From positions 96,001 through 160,000 of the forward strand of contig CAXXGJ010000018.1 of assembly GCA_963677895.2 (NCBI GenBank): a stretch of DNA of 64,000 nt, read 5' to 3'. Numbering within the stretch: position 1 is the first letter of the stretch; every line of letters begins with the position of its first letter. This DNA comes from Treponemataceae bacterium (GTDB taxonomy: Bacteria; Spirochaetota; Spirochaetia; Treponematales; Rectinemataceae). Of the stretch, positions 27,001 through 33,000 are shown in pieces. Position numbers: made by a program.

Positions 27001-30000
27001 GGAAAAGCCTGTGGAAAAGCTCGCGCCTAAATCTGCGCCTACACCTTCTCCCGCTCAGCCATCCACGTCCGTCGCCAAAGCCGACGCTTCCTCGGTGATG
27101 CCCGCGGCGGAAAGTCCCAAAGCCGTCGAGACGCCCGGCGCTCCCTCGGCGCCGCTTCCTGAGGTAACGCCCCCCGGTCTAGTCGGCTCGGTGGCGGAAG
27201 CCGTACCCGTCGAGCCCTGGGTTCCTGGGCAGCGCGATCCCGGTTCCCATATAAGTTCGACCAATTCCATGCTCTTCGTGCCGGGAAAAGGCGAAGTCCC
27301 CTGGACGGGGAGCCAGATGACCATCCGCAAATCGGAAAAAGGAAGCGCTTCGGAAACGACCCTGGGAGGAGCCCAGGGAACGGTAGGCCAGAACCTCTAC
27401 GTCCCCATCTATTACAGCTTCCCCTTGCCTAAAATGGTGCCGGCCTCGATCTATAACTCCATCCCCAACCTCACGCAAGCGCCCAACGTCATCATCTATT
27501 CCGCACAGGCGAGAAAGAAGGCATTCACCTCGTATTATGAGTTCGACGGCTCGGCTTACCGCCTCAAGACGGACGTTCCCCTCGACCAGCGCGAACCGCT
27601 TTGGCAGATACTTGAAGACGCCGGCTATAACGTGGCTGACGCCGATTTCAAAAAGGGCAGGAACTTATCGCCCGTGGTCATCGTGTTCACCGTCACGAAC
27701 AACAATCAGATTAAAGGAGCCGAGATTTATCAGTCCACCGGTGACTCGGAGATGGACAGAGCCGCCCTGAATGGATTCAAGAGAGGAATGTACTGGAACA
27801 AGACGGGCGAGACGGTGCCCGGCCGCTTTACGTATCGATTCTAGAAAGGTTGAAATAGTCTTCGTAGAGTTTCGCGTTGAAAAATGCCGCCACCACGTCC
27901 GGCGCGAACTGTTTTCCGCTTTCCGCCTTGATTTCTTCAAGCACTGCCTCCAGGGGCAGTGCTTTTCTATAGGGACGGGATTGCGCCATCGCGTCGAAAG
28001 TGTCGGCCAACGTTATGATACGTGCCAGCGGATCGATATCCTCGCCGGCGACCCCGTCCGGATACCCTTTGCCGTCCCAGCGTTCGTGATGGTGCCTGAC
28101 GCCATTGATGGCGGGAGCGAAAAACTCGACGATCGAAAGGATCTGGGCGCCGATGAGCGGATGCATCTTTATGACTTCGATCTCTTCGGGATCGAGCGAG
28201 CCTACTTTATTGAGAATCCGTTCCGGTATGCCTATTTTGCCGATGTCGTGGAGCAACGCGGCGAACTCCAGAGGTTCTATCTGGTCTTCTGGCAGCTTGA
28301 GTTCCCTGGCTAGCCTCACGGCCAGGCTTCGCACCCTTTCGCAGTGCCCCTGGGTGTACTGATCCTTCGCCTCGATGGTTTCGGCCAGAGCCTGGACCGT
28401 CTGCATGTTGGCCTGTCTCAGCTTGCCATATGTTTCCTTGAGTTCCAGCGTCTTGGACTGCATGGTGCGTTCGAGCGTGAGCCTGTATTCCTCGTTTTTT
28501 TTGTCCTGCTCGAATTTTTCCCTCACGATATCCCGGTAGCGGACGGCCTTGGCTATGACTTCGGCGATATGTTCCAGCCTGCTCGGCTTTACGAGATAGT
28601 CGAAGGCGCCATTCCTCATGGCTTCCAGGCCTGAGGCGAGGTCGCTGTAGGCGGTGAGCATGATGACAGGCGTAAAGGGTTTGACTTCCCTGATCCTCGG
28701 CAGGGCTTCCTTGCCCGAGAGAACAGGCATTCGTATGTCGAGCAGAATGCAGTCGGGATCGAGGTTGCCCGACATGAGCATTTCCAGGCCTTCCTGACCG
28801 TTCGTCGCCATGCTCACCACGTATTCCATCCTCTCCAGGCCGCGGGACAGGACCTTGCGGATGGAGGGATCGTCATCGATTACCAGTATTGTCCGTTGCT
28901 TCGCTGCACTCATGTAGACCTTTCCATCAAAGCGATGAGAACCCATCGGTCCTTTTCAGTTTCCGCGGAATCATCCCTTTTTCATTCCAGGGAACAGGAA
29001 TGGGACATTTTTCTTGTATTCGCCGTATCCATGGAAAACCTTGGGAAAAGTGTAGCGATCTTGTATGAATATTAAAAGCAGATCGAGGCCAATCATGAGG
29101 AAAATTGTAAAGAAATTTTCGCGAAACCCCCGCAAAATGCCCAGGGAAGCGGCGAGCAGGCAAAACCACCAGAATCCGGGGTGCCTGCATAGACCGTAGG
29201 AGCCGCCGCTGTATATTTCGCCGGGCTTTATTTTTCCCTTTCTTCCGGCCAGCGCCAACTCGAAAAAGACGGACCAGAGGAGGAGAGCGAAGGACGCCAG
29301 AGCTGTCAGGATGAGCAACAGCGAAAAAAGCGTTCCTGGCCGAATCGCTCCCTGGAAGCCGGGAGTCAGCGGAGGGCCTTCGGCGAAATCTCCGGGGTTT
29401 GGGCCGAGGGTGAGGAAGCCAAGCGCTCCTCCGACAGCCAGATATCCGATCGCCTGGAGGAACGGAACGCCTTTTCCGCCTTTTGCCCAGAGAAAATCAG
29501 CCGTTATGAGCAGTAAAAATCCGAATACTGCAAGCGAACCCTGTACCATTGTGAAATGCATTATGCTATAGTATCCTCTGTTTTGCCAGATAAAAGTTAA
29601 TTCCAGAGGTTTCGGCATGATTTTGGACGCATCGTCGCTCATTCCGGCATTGTCCTTCATTATTTATATCATCTTCATCGTTTTCGGCATTTACAGCCGG
29701 AAAGAGAAAGTCGACACCTCATTCCTTCTCTATATGTTCTTCATGGCATTGTGGAGCTTCGGCTCTTTCATGATGCATGCCAATACGGGGCTTTTTTCTC
29801 CCCTGACCTGGAACAAGGTCATGCTGCTGGGGCTTTTCGGCGGACCGATTTCTTTCATGCAGACGATGATTTATCTTTCCGGCACCGAAAAGAAACGTTA
29901 TCAGGTGTTCCTCTATATCGGCTACATCATCTATTTCTACCTGATTTATCTCAACCTTTCCGGCAAGGTGGTGACCGCGGCGGGCTTCGACGAGAACGGC

Positions 30001-33000
30001 TTCTATTATGTCCTCGGCAACGGTTCCATTCTGGCGTATTCGCTGTCCTACTTTTTCCTGGGCCTGTCGATTCTCCTTCTTCTGCGTCAGCTTAAGGCAA
30101 GCGACAATAAGTTCAAGAAGAAGACGCTTCGGCTGCTCATAATCGGCGCCATCATCATCGTGATGGGCGTCGCGGCGAACCTGTACAAGCCTATCGGAAA
30201 GTATCCCATCGACCTCCTCGCGACGACGATCAACGCGGCGATCATCTTCTTCGCGGTCTATAAATACCGTCTCATTCACTACTCCTCGGCGGTGCTCAAC
30301 ATCCTCCTCACTTTCTTCGTGTCGATACTGACGAGCGCCCTCTTCCTCTTTTTCTTCGTGCCGGTTTTTCACATCAACAGCGCGATTCCCTTTCCCAGGG
30401 TGCTTCTCCTGGCCCTGATCCTGGGGTTCATCACCTCCATAATCCTTTCGCCGCTCCGGACGACAACGCTCTCTTTCCTCAAGAGGCTCTATGGCGGCAA
30501 GACCTTTACCTACTATCAGAGCCTGAGGGTGTTCTCGGCCAGCCTCACCTCCATCGTGGACCTCGAAACCCTGGGCAATCTCACCATGGAGAAAATCACC
30601 TCCACCTTCGGCCTCGGATGGGCCCTGATGCTGGTCAACGATTTCAACGACAGGAATTTCAAGCTCAACGTGGCCAAACAGCTGCCTTTCGACGGGCGGA
30701 TCATCGAAGGGCAGGATCAGTCGATCAGCCTGAAGCGCGGAAGCGAGTTCGTCAGGGTATTCGCGGTTCATCAAGGCAGCGAAAAGAGCGAAATGCAGTA
30801 CCTCTACGTACCGCAGACAATGATAGATATCACCCTCGAAAAGGGCGAGATTTCCGAAACCCTGAAGGCCAGCCTCATCCTCCCCCTCAAGTTCAAGGAA
30901 CGCCTGAACGGCTTCGTCATTCTCGGACCGCAGGTCGACAGGGACTATTACAACCAGTTCGATCTGGAAATGCTCCAGCTGCTGAGCGTCCAGTGCTCGG
31001 TGGCCCTGGAAAACGCCATCACCTTCGAGCGGCTGAAACAGCAGCAGAAAAGGCTGCAGAACATCAACAACCAGCTGGAAATCAGCCGGAACAAACTCGA
31101 AGCCTTCTTCGACGGCATCACGACGCCGATCACCATTCAGGACATCAACTACAATATCATCGAAGTGAATTACGCCGCGCGACGCTATTTCGAGAAGTCC
31201 ACCGAGGAACTGATCGGGAACAAGTGCTACAAGATGTTTTTCAACAGGGACCGACCCTGCCTCGAATGTCTGGCGCAGGACTGCCTCCACACGCGCCTGC
31301 CCTTCAACGCGGAGCGGCAGGACGTCAAGGGACTGCTCACCTTCTCGCTCAACTTCTATCCCATACCCGTCCCCAAGACGGCCACGCCCATTTTCCTGGA
31401 GTTCTTCCAGGACATCACCAAGCAGAAGACCCTGCAGGATGAGCTAATCCAGTCGGAAAAGTTAGCCGGCATAGGCACCCTGGTGTCGGGCATCGCGCAT
31501 GAGATCAACAATCCCCTCGGCGCCATCCTGGGCACTGCCGATCTGATGCTCCCCGAGACCGCCGAGGGAAGCAGGCTGCAGGAATATACGCAGGATATCG
31601 CCCGCTACGCCCAGAACGCCGCGGAAGTCATCCAGGACCTCATGGTCTATTCGCGGAAAACGAAGAGCCAGCCCGATATGGTCAATATCGTGACCATTCT
31701 CGAAAATTCCCTCAAGCTCGCCATGCGCGGCATGGATTTCGGCTCGATCACGGTGAAGAAAAACTACAATCAGACGAACGAGGTTCAGGCGAACGCGACC
31801 GAACTGCAGCAGGTTTTCCTCAATCTCATCGTCAACGCGGTGCAGGCCATGAACTCGGACGGAACGCTGACCCTGGCCGCGAAACAGGAAGACGCCGATG
31901 TCATCGTGACCATCAAGGATACGGGCATCGGTATCAAGAAACAGAATCTCGACAAGGTCTTCAATCCCTTCTTCACGACAAAAGATCCCGGAGCCGGCAC
32001 AGGACTGGGGTTGAGCATCGCGCATCACATCGTATCGAAGCTGGGGGGTAGAATCATCATCGACTCGGAAGAAAAGCAAGGCACGACCTTCCAGATCGTC
32101 CTCCCCGCGGCCAACATGGAACGCAACAAGATCCGTTTCGTCCACGCGAAGGATACGCGCCAGCTCGAGGACAGTTTCTATCTGCAGCGCAAGGTTCTCG
32201 TGGGCGAAAAGGGCTATCTGGAGGAAACGATCCACCGGAGCGAGGACGAGAGCGCCTTCCACCTGCTGGCTTACAAGGGAATGCAGCCCGTCGGCACGAC
32301 AACGCTTCATTTGAGCGAAGTGGAGGGCGAAATCCCCATCCAGAGCAATTACGATCTTTCGGATTATATGGACGGCACTCCCTACGCGGAAATAGACAGA
32401 CTGGCTATCATCAGGGAAGAACGCGGCTCGATCGTGCCTTTCAGCCTCATGGTCCTGTCCTACCTCTACATCAGAGGCAAGGGCGTGGACAAGATGTTCC
32501 TCGATGTTTTCAGCGACGAGACAAGGCTTATCCGCATGTACGAAAAGCTGGGTTTCCGGGTGATCGGGACCTACAACAAGCCGCTCGCGTGCACGGTGAT
32601 GATGCTGAATCACGAATCGAACTACATCGACACGGTTTCGAAGATGGAGCATTTCGTCCAGAGCTTCTTTTCCCGCCTCATCCCCAAGCTGGAGTTCGAC
32701 GGCGAGGACAAGGAATATCTCTACAAGACCATAAACGAGATAAACAAGAAAACCGAAAGGATAGGCGAGAGTTTTGCGCAGGACCCGAAAGAAAGCGACG
32801 CTGAAGCTTAGCTGAAGCGCCGCCGAAGCTTAATAGAATATCGTGCGCTGCGTCCTGGCGGATGAATAGATTCCTTCGATGATTTTCACCGCTTCCATGC
32901 CCTCCTCCCCGGTGACCTTGGGTCTTGTGCCCGCGGCCGCGGCCTGGGCGAAATCGTCGATCTGAAGCGAGAAAAAATACCAGGTCGGCTCGATTTTCGA

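Follow-up and report, generated by a model that had tools for sequence, protein, structure and literature searches.

A spirochaete 7TM sensor histidine kinase with a C-terminal FeeM-class GNAT domain, linked to an ICMT/PEMT-like gene and a REC-HD-GYP regulator

In several bacterial signaling systems, the synthase of a hydrophobic signal is encoded alongside its sensor, a polytopic histidine kinase by which this signal is detected in the membrane. Examples are LuxM/LuxN, CqsA/CqsS, and PhcB/PhcS, the last of which employs a methyltransferase (PhcB) to make a fatty-acid methyl ester. The outputs of these systems are phosphorelays to transcription factors rather than to HD-GYP proteins and, to our knowledge, none of the three is fused or contains a FeeM-class GNAT. 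FeeM itself is a free enzyme of ~190 aa whose biosynthetic cluster includes a dedicated carrier protein. Part of this description is also found in the available text of PMC11685415, which presents altered P-loops as a mark of carrier-protein-dependent GNATs, including FeeM. The adjacency of synthase and kinase genes in CPR bacteria was already published in 2020, when 18 LuxI homologues were described as lying next to a sensory kinase and a complete signaling system was proposed in silico (Bernard et al. 2020, mSystems, PMC7567580, in its available text). As far as that main text was available, the terms "histidine kinase" and "methyltransferase" are absent from it and it mentions neither a fusion nor HD-GYP.

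The window, a stretch of 64,000 nucleotides from an environmental Treponemataceae bacterium, encodes a 1064-aa histidine kinase of the 7TM/GAF-like/PAS type that ends in a GNAT domain of ~200 aa (Table 1), and the Pfam matches of the survey's finding (HisKA_7TM, PAS_4, HisKA, HATPase_c, FeeM, and Acetyltransf_1) were all reproduced. An alignment of 33 full-length orthologues (47-89% identity) revealed intact kinase motifs, with H628, E629, N632, N740, D768, G770, G772, G796, and G798 each present in 33/33 sequences. The Cys cluster of the PAS domain is similarly retained (C537, C548, and C551 each in 33/33, C556 in 26/33, and the nearby H558 in 31/33). Mean identity was 60% for the GNAT domain and 62% for the ATPase domain, compared to 55% for the 7TM part and 31% for the C-terminal tail; the GNAT domain is conserved about as well as the ATPase domain, like a working domain. 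Invariant columns number 37 over the 33 orthologues, all within residues 852-1013; the survey had counted 44 over 26 sequences. The linker between the ATPase and GNAT domains is only ~8 residues. In the explanation tentatively proposed below, the 7TM, GAF-like, and Cys-rich PAS parts would control the core of a dimeric, membrane-bound kinase.

Table 1. Features of the kinase-GNAT locus, in window coordinates.
Feature	Position	Strand	Basis
Response regulator, REC 20-131 and HD-GYP 187-351, c-di-GMP phosphodiesterase	27828..28946	-	Response_reg 2.9e-28, HD_5 1.1e-38
ICMT/PEMT (Ste14)-like small membrane protein, ~196 aa	28971..29561	-	ORF, homologues, motif, fold
Divergent intergenic region, ICMT-like gene/kinase gene	29562..29616	.	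55 nt, read from sequence
Sensor histidine kinase gene with C-terminal GNAT (P0001)	29617..32811	+	ORF, translation, Pfam
HisKA_7TM membrane sensor, residues 14-220	29656..30276	+	PF16927 4.8e-15, 56.4 bits vs cut-off 28.6
PAS domain, residues 498-604, conserved Cys cluster	31108..31428	+	Pfam PAS_4 2.7e-5
Kinase core, HisKA/DHp 621-681 and HATPase_c 727-832	31477..32112	+	HisKA 2.3e-11, HATPase_c 1e-26
C-terminal GNAT, FeeM class (residues 840 to ~1010), helical tail 1011-1064, and stop	32134..32811	+	Pfam, AF2, VIA-align

The C-terminal domain exceeded the Pfam cut-offs of both FeeM (PF21926, residues 866-985, 9.7e-9, 35.6 bits vs 27) and Acetyltransf_1 (residues 870-980, 24.4 bits vs 20.7). 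At E<=0.01, the kinase-GNAT protein had no match to Autoind_synth and its GNAT domain none to Acetyltransf_5 (PF13444). As in the survey, AF2 returned a confident model of residues 840-1064 (pLDDT 91.9, pTM 0.87), for which Foldseek again gave the best E values to YjcF (5e-10) and SACOL1063 (1e-9), while FeeM (2g0b) and BjaI were matched with TMq of 0.59 and 0.57-0.58, respectively. The top VIA-align match was FeeM (Z 17.2, rmsd 2.8, 167 residues), but YjcF scored Z 16.5, and since this gap is <1 unit we regard the two as tied, in agreement with the survey's own caveat that a fold search does not separate FeeM-like enzymes from small N-acetyltransferases. A profile search of solved chains ranked SACOL1063 (1.2e-17) and YjcF (1.9e-11) ahead of BjaI (3.1e-6) and FeeM (4.1e-4). 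Sequence thus places two small acetyl-CoA GNATs closest among solved chains, and the title of the SACOL1063 structure states that it was crystallized with CoA. The N-terminal protein acetyltransferases Naa30, Naa50, and RimI came next in both the profile and fold lists. The classical CoA-binding P-loop (Q/R-x-x-G-x-G/A) is altered throughout the orthologues, as position 4 is I/L/F/T/V and never Gly in 33/33 and position 6 is Pro in 31/33. Because this loss of glycines matches the description available in PMC11685415, we read the GNAT as probably carrier-protein-dependent. The residues expected to be catalytic are retained, both in the orthologues (beta4 Glu E925 in 33/33 and alpha4 Tyr Y975 in 31/33) and across the wider family (42/46 and 41/46, respectively), and the fused GNAT domains form a single clade in the tree (support 100/99). 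In the same tentative explanation, the domain may be catalytically active as a GNAT N-acyltransferase and belong to the FeeM/N-acyl amino acid synthase class.

The survey had placed an HD-GYP gene divergently next to the kinase. A divergent REC-HD-GYP gene does exist, and its translation contains the HDIGK and HHERWDGKGYP motifs, but the two genes are not immediate neighbors because an ICMT-like gene, overlooked previously, lies between them. The proposed link of kinase and regulator nonetheless extends beyond this locus: a REC-HD-GYP orthologue is the divergent neighbor of the kinase in 9/10 other loci (10/11 including the window), and it is likely the cognate regulator. The ICMT-like gene appears to be operonic with the REC-HD-GYP gene, and AGAGG-type ribosome-binding sites precede both of the starts that flank the intergenic region. 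The longest ORF of the ICMT-like gene extends to 29660, whereas its homologues (177-210 aa, several JGI-named "protein-S-isoprenylcysteine O-methyltransferase Ste14") begin at MHFTMV. Pfam ICMT was matched below threshold in 5/6 orthologues, and the window copy had no Pfam match even at E<=10; an invariant GxYxxxRHPG...D...YxxY...PF motif is present, and the Atlas neighbors of the protein bear PEMT/ICMT. PDB sequences searched by profile yielded no match, nor did Foldseek at E<=0.001, while VIA-align recovered the C-terminal half of a sterol reductase (Z 12.5) ahead of Ma-ICMT (Z 9.4) and ICMT (Z 9.1). Given this best structural match, a reductase-type activity is also possible. The gene adjoins the kinase module in 6/11 loci and is found elsewhere in the genome in the other five (5/5). 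Overall, it occurs in 16/401 sampled genomes, including all 11 that are GNAT-positive, with three having the gene and no kinase-GNAT orthologue found; these co-occurrence counts are not independent, since the module-bearing genomes are related to each other.

Using residues 840-1064 as the query, we again recovered 158 proteins at E<=0.001, the number that the survey had reported. Among the 120 matches listed, nearly all are 1014-1103 aa and combine PF21926 with kinase domains, while shorter entries appear to be truncated; every organism name given is spirochaetal. The description of the domain as spirochaete-wide was not sustained, however, as it was found in 11/401 sampled Spirochaetota genomes (10/153 genera) and in 0/50 genomes of the largest sampled family within the window's own order. 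In one further genome, the kinase is interrupted by a contig end. The closest unfused relatives are rare and are either standalone, fused to REC or PilZ, or preceded by an uncharacterized N-terminal domain. Fusions of this GNAT clade to signaling input domains recur and comprise REC-GNAT (P0139, P0260, P0265), PilZ-GNAT (P0149), and HK-GNAT. In the nearest unfused relatives, FeeM scores far above Acetyltransf_1 (e.g. 7.8e-17 vs 1e-8). Weak Acetyltransf_5 matches (e.g. P0140 3.4e-5, P0173 2.1e-8) and a marginal OlsB match were also seen among relatives. Eight metagenome loci were fetched, of which five (L101-L105) encode true relatives. A class-I SAM methyltransferase lies directly downstream of the GNAT gene in 4/4 loci whose DNA extends past it, and HisKA_7TM kinases are present in 4/4 loci that have sufficient flanking DNA. 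REC genes or domains also occur, and one locus encodes a FadL/TodX outer-membrane channel. In L102 and L103, the methyltransferase is followed by 7TM-GAF kinases to which residues 43-494 of the window kinase align at ~22% identity (E of ~1e-13 to 1e-14 in a search of a small local database). These unfused clusters represent only about three lineages, with 87% identity between the methyltransferases of L103 and L104. The SAM methyltransferases of these clusters are not homologous to the spirochaete ICMT/PEMT-like protein, and the methylation step is therefore proposed by analogy.

From these results, we cautiously favor, at somewhat less than an even chance, a three-gene module in which a signal-controlled N-acyltransferase yields a methylated acyl product and is connected with both a kinase and c-di-GMP turnover. 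The acyl donor would be a carrier protein (acyl-ACP) or some other non-classical source, rather than acetyl-CoA bound by the usual P-loop, and the GNAT would place the acyl group onto an amine, most likely that of an amino acid. The ICMT/PEMT-like membrane enzyme would then modify this amphiphilic product, probably by methylation. Fusion to the kinase probably couples GNAT activity to the kinase signaling state, while the kinase itself would most likely phosphorylate the REC-HD-GYP protein and alter c-di-GMP breakdown. The acyl product may also be the ligand sensed by the 7TM part, creating a make-and-sense loop. If true, a single protein would combine sensing with the production of a lipid-like molecule. 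The earlier observation is thus partly confirmed and its interpretation partly supported: a signaling-coupled acyl-compound synthase receives new support from the REC and PilZ fusions, the clusters of GNAT, methyltransferase, and HisKA_7TM kinase genes, and the altered P-loop, whereas the "AHL-like" label is weak given the missing Autoind_synth match, and the claim of a first candidate acyl-signal synthase and new output domain exceeds what sequence can show.

An unlikely alternative in our estimation has the GNAT acting as a protein N-acetyl- or N-acyltransferase upon a lysine or N-terminus of the kinase, the regulator, or another target, so that its output would be a post-translational mark rather than a small molecule. 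The small acetyltransferases nearest to it by sequence, the appearance of Naa30, Naa50, and RimI immediately behind them, and the Acetyltransf_1 score above cut-off all agree with such a role, and tethering to a dimeric kinase would set the enzyme near protein substrates. However, the CoA P-loop glycines are absent from every orthologue, the unfused relatives match the FeeM profile many orders of magnitude better than those of general acetyltransferases, and the methyltransferase behind the unfused GNATs, together with the FadL-type channel of one cluster, better fits a small hydrophobic product.

Rather less probable is a role in membrane aminolipid remodeling, with an OlsB/GlsB-like GNAT that starts an amino-acid-containing membrane lipid and PEMT/ICMT-like head-group methylation serving to tune the membrane under two-component control and no signal molecule involved. 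According to the available text of PMC11631085, aminolipid N-acyltransferases use acyl-ACP and resemble N-acyl amino acid synthases, and aminolipids can be methylated. A PEMT-type fold would be well suited to methylate a head group. The weak PF13444 and OlsB matches of the relatives and the patatin-like lipase genes beside the module in three loci point the same way. Yet, PF13444 failed to match the window domain itself at E<=0.01, no PlsC/OlsA-type O-acyltransferase for a second acylation was found among the neighbors scanned, and an association as tight and recurrent as that with several 7TM kinases, REC, and PilZ would be unusual for bulk lipid synthesis. We attach the lowest probability, a small one, to a non-catalytic GNAT that binds acyl-ACP, acyl-CoA, or a fatty amide and informs the kinase, on its cytoplasmic side, of the lipid or metabolic status. 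Its donor-binding P-loop is degenerate, no family member has a known activity, and the short linker would permit direct action upon the ATPase domain. Conversely, the beta4 Glu and alpha4 Tyr are kept in fused and unfused members alike, the GNAT of REC-GNAT and PilZ-GNAT occupies the output rather than the sensor position, and the dedicated methyltransferase that follows the unfused GNAT genes implies that there is a product to modify.

Among the described systems, YjcF (1Q2Y) and SACOL1063 (5JPH) share an N-terminal motif of the R-x-x-V-F-V-x-E-x-G type with the window GNAT, but these ~140-aa proteins lack its ~25-residue beta3-beta4 insert and C-terminal helices, and in the alignment they retain the classical RGxGxG loop. 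The Caulobacter protein HfsK, a c-di-GMP effector of the GNAT family (PMC5362036, available text), offers a precedent for a GNAT under c-di-GMP control that is relevant to both the PilZ-GNAT relative and the HD-GYP partner; it belongs to a different GNAT subfamily with a role in holdfast polysaccharide and no kinase fusion. FeeM and the long-chain N-acyl amino acid synthases (PF21926, 2G0B) have the same GNAT fold, being the best structural match as well as a Pfam match above cut-off, and, by the available account in PMC11685415, an altered P-loop in common with the window domain. Unlike free FeeM, the window domain forms the C-terminal end of a 1064-aa kinase, and by profile it resembles the FeeM chain weakly. 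LuxM/LuxN, CqsA/CqsS, and PhcB/PhcS follow the same logic of a synthase paired with a membrane kinase; in the window, binding of the product by the 7TM part is hypothetical. Similarly, the LuxI/kinase pairs of CPR bacteria, as described in the available text of PMC7567580, genetically couple an acyl-signal-synthase-like GNAT to a membrane sensor kinase, but as separate genes, whereas the two are a single polypeptide in Spirochaetota, accompanied by an ICMT-like gene and by a regulator of the c-di-GMP phosphodiesterase type.

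P0001, the kinase-GNAT protein of the window, has a well preserved kinase core. Pfam recognized both HisKA (2.3e-11) and HATPase_c (1e-26). We aligned 33 full-length orthologues whose identity to the window protein ranges from 47 to 89%, and all 33 share the H-box histidine H628 as well as the N, G1, and G2 box residues N740, D768/G770/G772, and G796/G798. As these positions are all invariant, the kinase looks functional. Pfam returned no Response_reg match in P0001, and it is thus not a hybrid histidine kinase with a receiver in the same polypeptide; its C-terminus is the GNAT domain. 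Three HisKA_7TM proteins are encoded in the 3.5 Mb, 39-contig genome from which the window derives. The PAS domain, which is absent from the kinases of the unfused clusters described below, contains a cysteine cluster that could serve, judged by its sequence, in metal or iron-sulfur (redox) sensing. Among the orthologues, C537, C548, and C551 are each present in 33/33, C556 in 26/33, and H558 in 31/33. Promoter and terminator predictions over 27700-33000 were about as numerous as expected from shuffled sequence, and none was usable.

Coordinates of the kinase-GNAT locus and of features in the window and in the compared loci
Feature	Sequence	Position	Strand	Details
Kinase-GNAT gene (P0001)	window	29617..32811	+	ORF, 1064 residues; Pfam domains HisKA_7TM 14-220, weak GAF-like 414-465, PAS 498-604, HisKA 621-681, HATPase_c 727-832
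PAS Cys cluster	window	31225-31290		residues 537-558; C537-x10-C548-x2-C551-x4-C556-x-H558
ICMT/PEMT-like gene	window	28971..29561	-	
REC-HD-GYP neighbour gene	window	27828..28946	-	Response_reg 2.9e-28, HD_5 1.1e-38 (Pfam); HDIGK and HHERWDGKGYP in translation
TonB-type energy-transducing set	window	25642-27844	+	ExbB-like (25642-26283), ExbD-sized (26280-26693), 384-aa ORF
Gfo/Idh/MocA-family oxidoreductase gene	window	32830-33903	-	convergent with kinase, 18 nt past its stop
Patatin-like phospholipase gene	L096	7056-7946		directly beside module
Patatin-like phospholipase gene	L099	13216-14112		directly beside module
Patatin-like phospholipase gene	L097	12046-13143		directly beside module
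Nitroreductase-family gene	L092	8140-8691		convergent to kinase-GNAT gene
Nitroreductase-family gene	L093	8365-8925		convergent to kinase-GNAT gene
Nitroreductase-family gene	L094	6674-7243		convergent to kinase-GNAT gene
Nitroreductase-family gene	L095	8112-8723		convergent to kinase-GNAT gene
Nitroreductase-family gene	L096	12724-13281		convergent to kinase-GNAT gene
Nitroreductase-family gene	L099	8062-8619		convergent to kinase-GNAT gene
GNAT gene with ~110-aa N-terminal domain	L102	5716-6585		
GNAT gene with ~110-aa N-terminal domain	L103	5707-6591		
GNAT gene with ~110-aa N-terminal domain	L105	3740-4513		
Paralogous HisKA_7TM kinase genes	L102	1374-5626		two or three per locus
Paralogous HisKA_7TM kinase genes	L103	1518-5224		two or three per locus

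The survey's finding had described this kinase as spirochaete-wide, a claim that failed when we searched 401 sampled Spirochaetota genomes in six frames with the GNAT domain: it was found in 11 of them, representing 10 of 153 genera. One family had it in 6/17 genomes, and the family with the most sampled genomes in the order to which the window belongs had it in 0/50. In the 11 genomes the domain always lies within an open frame of 1035-1079 aa, contig ends excepted, while in one further genome the kinase is cut at residue 596 by the contig end. The GNAT clade is narrow: with residues 840-1064 as the query, an exhaustive HMMER search yielded just 60 clusters (E<=0.001) from 1.84 billion representative proteins. 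When 46 GNAT domains, both fused and unfused, were placed in a tree, the kinase-fused domains formed one clade (support 100/99), a topology consistent with a single fusion event. The sole unlabelled row inside this clade, P0130, is a 182-aa piece beginning at domain residue 43. A contig search with the full-length alignment mostly picked generic kinase peptides, with L002 being the sole orthologue among 79 loci. The survey's numerical statements were reproduced wherever they could be repeated.

The kinase and the HD-GYP gene had also been described as direct neighbours, but a small membrane-protein gene that went unmentioned lies between them. The longest ORF for this gene extends to 29660, and its homologues together with a ribosome-binding site indicate a start at 29561. 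Ten orthologue loci served for comparison with the window, namely L002 and nine stretches taken from the sampled genomes. The REC-HD-GYP gene is the divergent neighbour of the kinase in 9/10 of these, the exception being L002. Judged by its Response_reg match and its HDIGK and HHERWDGKGYP motifs, its product is an HD-GYP c-di-GMP phosphodiesterase response regulator, a class marked by a REC domain with the acceptor aspartate plus HD and GYP motifs; it also matches the NCBIfam NosR-family model with 231.6 bits, below the 400-bit cut-off. The membrane-protein gene, hereafter ICMT-like, is present at the locus in 6/11 cases (window counted). It and the HD-GYP gene look like one operon, given that they overlap by 1-11 nt in other loci and are 24 nt apart in the window. 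The five genomes without the ICMT-like gene at this position all encode a strong orthologue elsewhere (E 1e-35 to 6e-43). Overall, the ICMT-like family occurs in 16/401 sampled genomes, including all 11 GNAT-positive ones, counts that are not independent because the genomes with the module are related. The ICMT-like protein is also encoded in G080, G120, and G134 (E 3e-39 to 3e-46; loci L125 and L124), three genomes that belong to the same spirochaete family, and a full-length query found no kinase-GNAT orthologue in them, so the ICMT-like enzyme can exist without the fusion.

Other genes adjoin the module in some of these loci. Three loci have a patatin-like phospholipase gene, which adjoins the HD-GYP gene in two of them and the 3' end of the kinase in the third; its product could supply or remove acyl chains, or the gene could merely reflect shared synteny. 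We rejected the nitroreductase-family gene as part of the module, as six related loci have it but the window, L002, L097, and L100 do not. An enzyme of the nitroreductase superfamily has been linked to a novel lipid of the M. tuberculosis tyz cluster (PMC10404671). The ExbB/ExbD-type set, identified by homology to Pfam-annotated L002 ORFs and located just upstream of the 3' end of the HD-GYP gene, was likewise set aside, being common to the window and L002 only. The Gfo/Idh/MocA-family gene has no counterpart in the other compared loci.

The small membrane protein is best described as ICMT/PEMT (Ste14)-like, methyltransferase and reductase chemistry not being separable here. The window copy has 0 Pfam matches at E<=10, and hence no above-cut-off match to PF04140 or PF04191. 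The ICMT profile does match 5/6 orthologues over the same profile region (E 7e-4 to 0.09, in each case short of the 24-bit cut-off), and precomputed annotations place PF04191 on two distant homologues and PF04140 on one. Several homologues were named Ste14-type methyltransferases by JGI, and the language-model neighbours of the homologue P0196, which stood in for the window copy as the query, carry PEMT/ICMT. All 33 sequences share the motif GxYxxxRHPG...D...YxxY...PF without variation, its GxYxxxRHPG part included, and we take an RHPxY-type motif to be a mark of the ICMT/PEMT family. An AF2 model of the protein (pLDDT 89.7) was compared using VIA-align, where the C-terminal (cofactor-binding) half of a sterol reductase scored highest (Z 12.5), followed by Ma-ICMT (9.4) and eukaryotic ICMT (9.1), with unrelated helical proteins at 7.5-9. 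Foldseek with this model gave nothing at E<=0.001 and a PDB sequence-profile search gave 0 matches.

The most informative result of the analysis is provided by the unfused relatives of the GNAT domain. The nearest of these are of four kinds: standalone proteins of ~190 aa, REC-GNAT proteins (P0139, P0260, and P0265), a PilZ-GNAT protein (P0149), and proteins with an unknown N-terminal domain of ~110 aa. In these relatives, the FeeM profile is ahead of Acetyltransf_1 by many orders of magnitude. The ~110-aa domain lacks a Pfam match and is found in 15/20 unfused-relative clusters (e.g. P0147, P0156, and P0255). Its structural resemblance to the c-di-GMP-binding MshEN domain is weak (TM 0.44, under the tool's bar); if real, it would add a third c-di-GMP control of the GNAT beside PilZ and HD-GYP. 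A metagenome scan with a 4-sequence alignment gave eight loci, of which five hold true relatives (L101-L105, perhaps three lineages). The other three (L106-L108; tblastn E 6e-7 to 9e-5) contain small classical GNATs with Acetyltransf_1/10 matches beside ferredoxin-like genes and were left out of the context counts. In 4/4 loci that reach far enough (L101-L104), a class-I SAM methyltransferase gene begins a few bases past the GNAT stop, and these methyltransferases are mutually orthologous (34-87% identity). HisKA_7TM kinases are encoded in 4/4 loci with enough flank (L101, L102, L103, and L105), the same four loci contain REC genes or domains, and L102 also has the gene for an outer-membrane channel of the FadL/TodX type, a channel for hydrophobic compounds. 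The kinase encoded behind the methyltransferase can be aligned to that of the window across both the core and the 7TM-GAF part. Some kinases of the unfused clusters are short (463-486 aa), consisting of 7TM and core only. From these recurring sets, the spirochaete protein looks like the fusion form of a FeeM-class GNAT, methyltransferase, 7TM kinase, and receiver system. In the spirochaete variant, a non-homologous membrane methyltransferase-like enzyme appears to replace the soluble one, and HD-GYP appears to be the output of the receiver. Paralogous HisKA_7TM kinases lie beside the GNAT and methyltransferase genes in L102 and L103; more than one receptor grouped with a single enzyme pair would be in keeping with signal sensing, but this is only an impression.

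What the GNAT domain itself might do was approached through both its family and its fold. The FeeM profile PF21926 matches P0001 residues 866-985 with 35.6 bits (gathering cut-off 27), and a six-frame search of the window genome scored it at 39.5 bits as the sole FeeM-type match there. Because related GNAT families overlap, this match alone leaves the function unfixed. NCBIfam gave no informative family for the domain, its best match being rimI (4.8e-4, far below its cut-off). The AF2 model (225 residues, soluble, pLDDT 91.9) has a GNAT fold with an insert of ~25 residues between beta3 and beta4 and additional C-terminal helices. The survey's finding had cautioned that a fold search does not separate FeeM-like enzymes from plain N-acetyltransferases, and this was borne out by VIA-align, in which FeeM was first (Z 17.2 over 167 residues) and YjcF (Z 16.5) tied with it within one Z unit. 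Structural similarity extends to the AHL synthases RpaI (15.8), TofI (15.2), and LasI (15.0), which gave the longest coverage. Foldseek ranked YjcF and SACOL1063 at the top, and sequence/profile searches of PDB chains gave SACOL1063 1.2e-17, YjcF 1.9e-11, BjaI 3.1e-6, and FeeM 4.1e-4. As the rankings differ between methods, fold and PDB similarity leave the subfamily unsettled.

The residues of the domain are more telling. Could it be a non-catalytic ligand sensor? We consider this very unlikely: the beta4 glutamate (E925) is kept in 42/46 and the alpha4 tyrosine (Y975) in 41/46 family members, positions we take to be the usual GNAT catalytic ones. In conservation, the GNAT domain matches the ATPase domain (mean identity 60% vs 62%). 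Action as a protein acetyl- or acyl-transferase seems unlikely; Acetyltransf_1 (PF00583) does match P0001 (24.4 bits, cut-off 20.7), more weakly than FeeM, and the P-loop reads R-G-S-I-V-P instead of the classical Q/R-x-x-G-x-G/A. Position 4 is never glycine in 33/33 orthologues and position 6 is proline in 31/33, so the domain lacks the loop glycines of a classical acetyl-CoA GNAT in spite of its match to that profile. Altered P-loops of this kind are characteristic of carrier-protein-dependent GNATs, FeeM included, according to the SbzI paper, in which putting classical loops back into SbzI nearly abolished activity (PMC11685415). The P0001 domain shares this non-classical loop. As the most likely reading, we tentatively favor an active N-acyltransferase, probably dependent on an acyl carrier protein, with an amphiphilic N-acyl compound as its product. 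The second, ICMT-like enzyme would modify this compound, and the kinase would control c-di-GMP through the HD-GYP regulator while being functionally tied to the acyltransferase.

Two further readings assign the product a more specific role. One is regulated synthesis of a membrane aminolipid in the manner of OlsB (for background, see PMC11631085), followed by head-group methylation; we regard it as improbable. The other is a fused quorum-sensing protein, in which a single polypeptide would both make a private lipid signal and receive it. An N-acyl amino acid would be produced by the FeeM-class domain at the C-terminus and converted to its methyl ester in the membrane by the adjacent ICMT-like enzyme. 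The protein's own 7TM part would sense the product, and the kinase would convert this into c-di-GMP breakdown via the REC-HD-GYP regulator. The genetic coupling of synthase and kinase seen in quorum-sensing pairs is found here for the candidate synthase, as a fusion in the window and as adjacency in 4/4 unfused loci with enough flank. P0001 has no match to the LuxI-type profile Autoind_synth (PF00765) at E<=0.01, and only a distant relative, P0173, shows one (8.6e-5, below cut-off). We find this loop quite unlikely in its entirety.

Returning to the favored N-acyltransferase, if the domain is active, this would be a two-component kinase bearing a lipid-type biosynthetic enzyme in its own polypeptide. 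GNAT acyltransferases would then be a signaling output placed, depending on lineage, under a kinase, a receiver, or a c-di-GMP-binding PilZ domain, and the spirochaetes would gain a candidate acyl-signal pathway tied to c-di-GMP, a messenger governing motility and biofilm. The module is small, comprising three genes and one soluble 225-residue domain modeled with a pLDDT of 92, and is thus directly testable. Our literature searches, including those directed at response-regulator output domains, N-acyl amino acids, PilZ-GNAT, and AclA/Tenacibaculum, found nothing on a kinase-GNAT fusion in spirochaetes. Systems of a related kind were described in silico by Bernard et al. (2020), who reported 18 LuxI homologues in CPR genomes that adjoin a sensory kinase and proposed these pairs as complete quorum-sensing systems (PMC7567580). 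Looking up terms in its main text gave no occurrence of 'histidine kinase' or 'methyltransferase', and no mention of a fusion was seen. Thus, the known kind consists of a synthase paired with a membrane kinase, whereas the window system, as predicted from sequence and structure comparison, differs in its fusion and its c-di-GMP output, and it is these two features, together with the ease of testing, that make it of interest.
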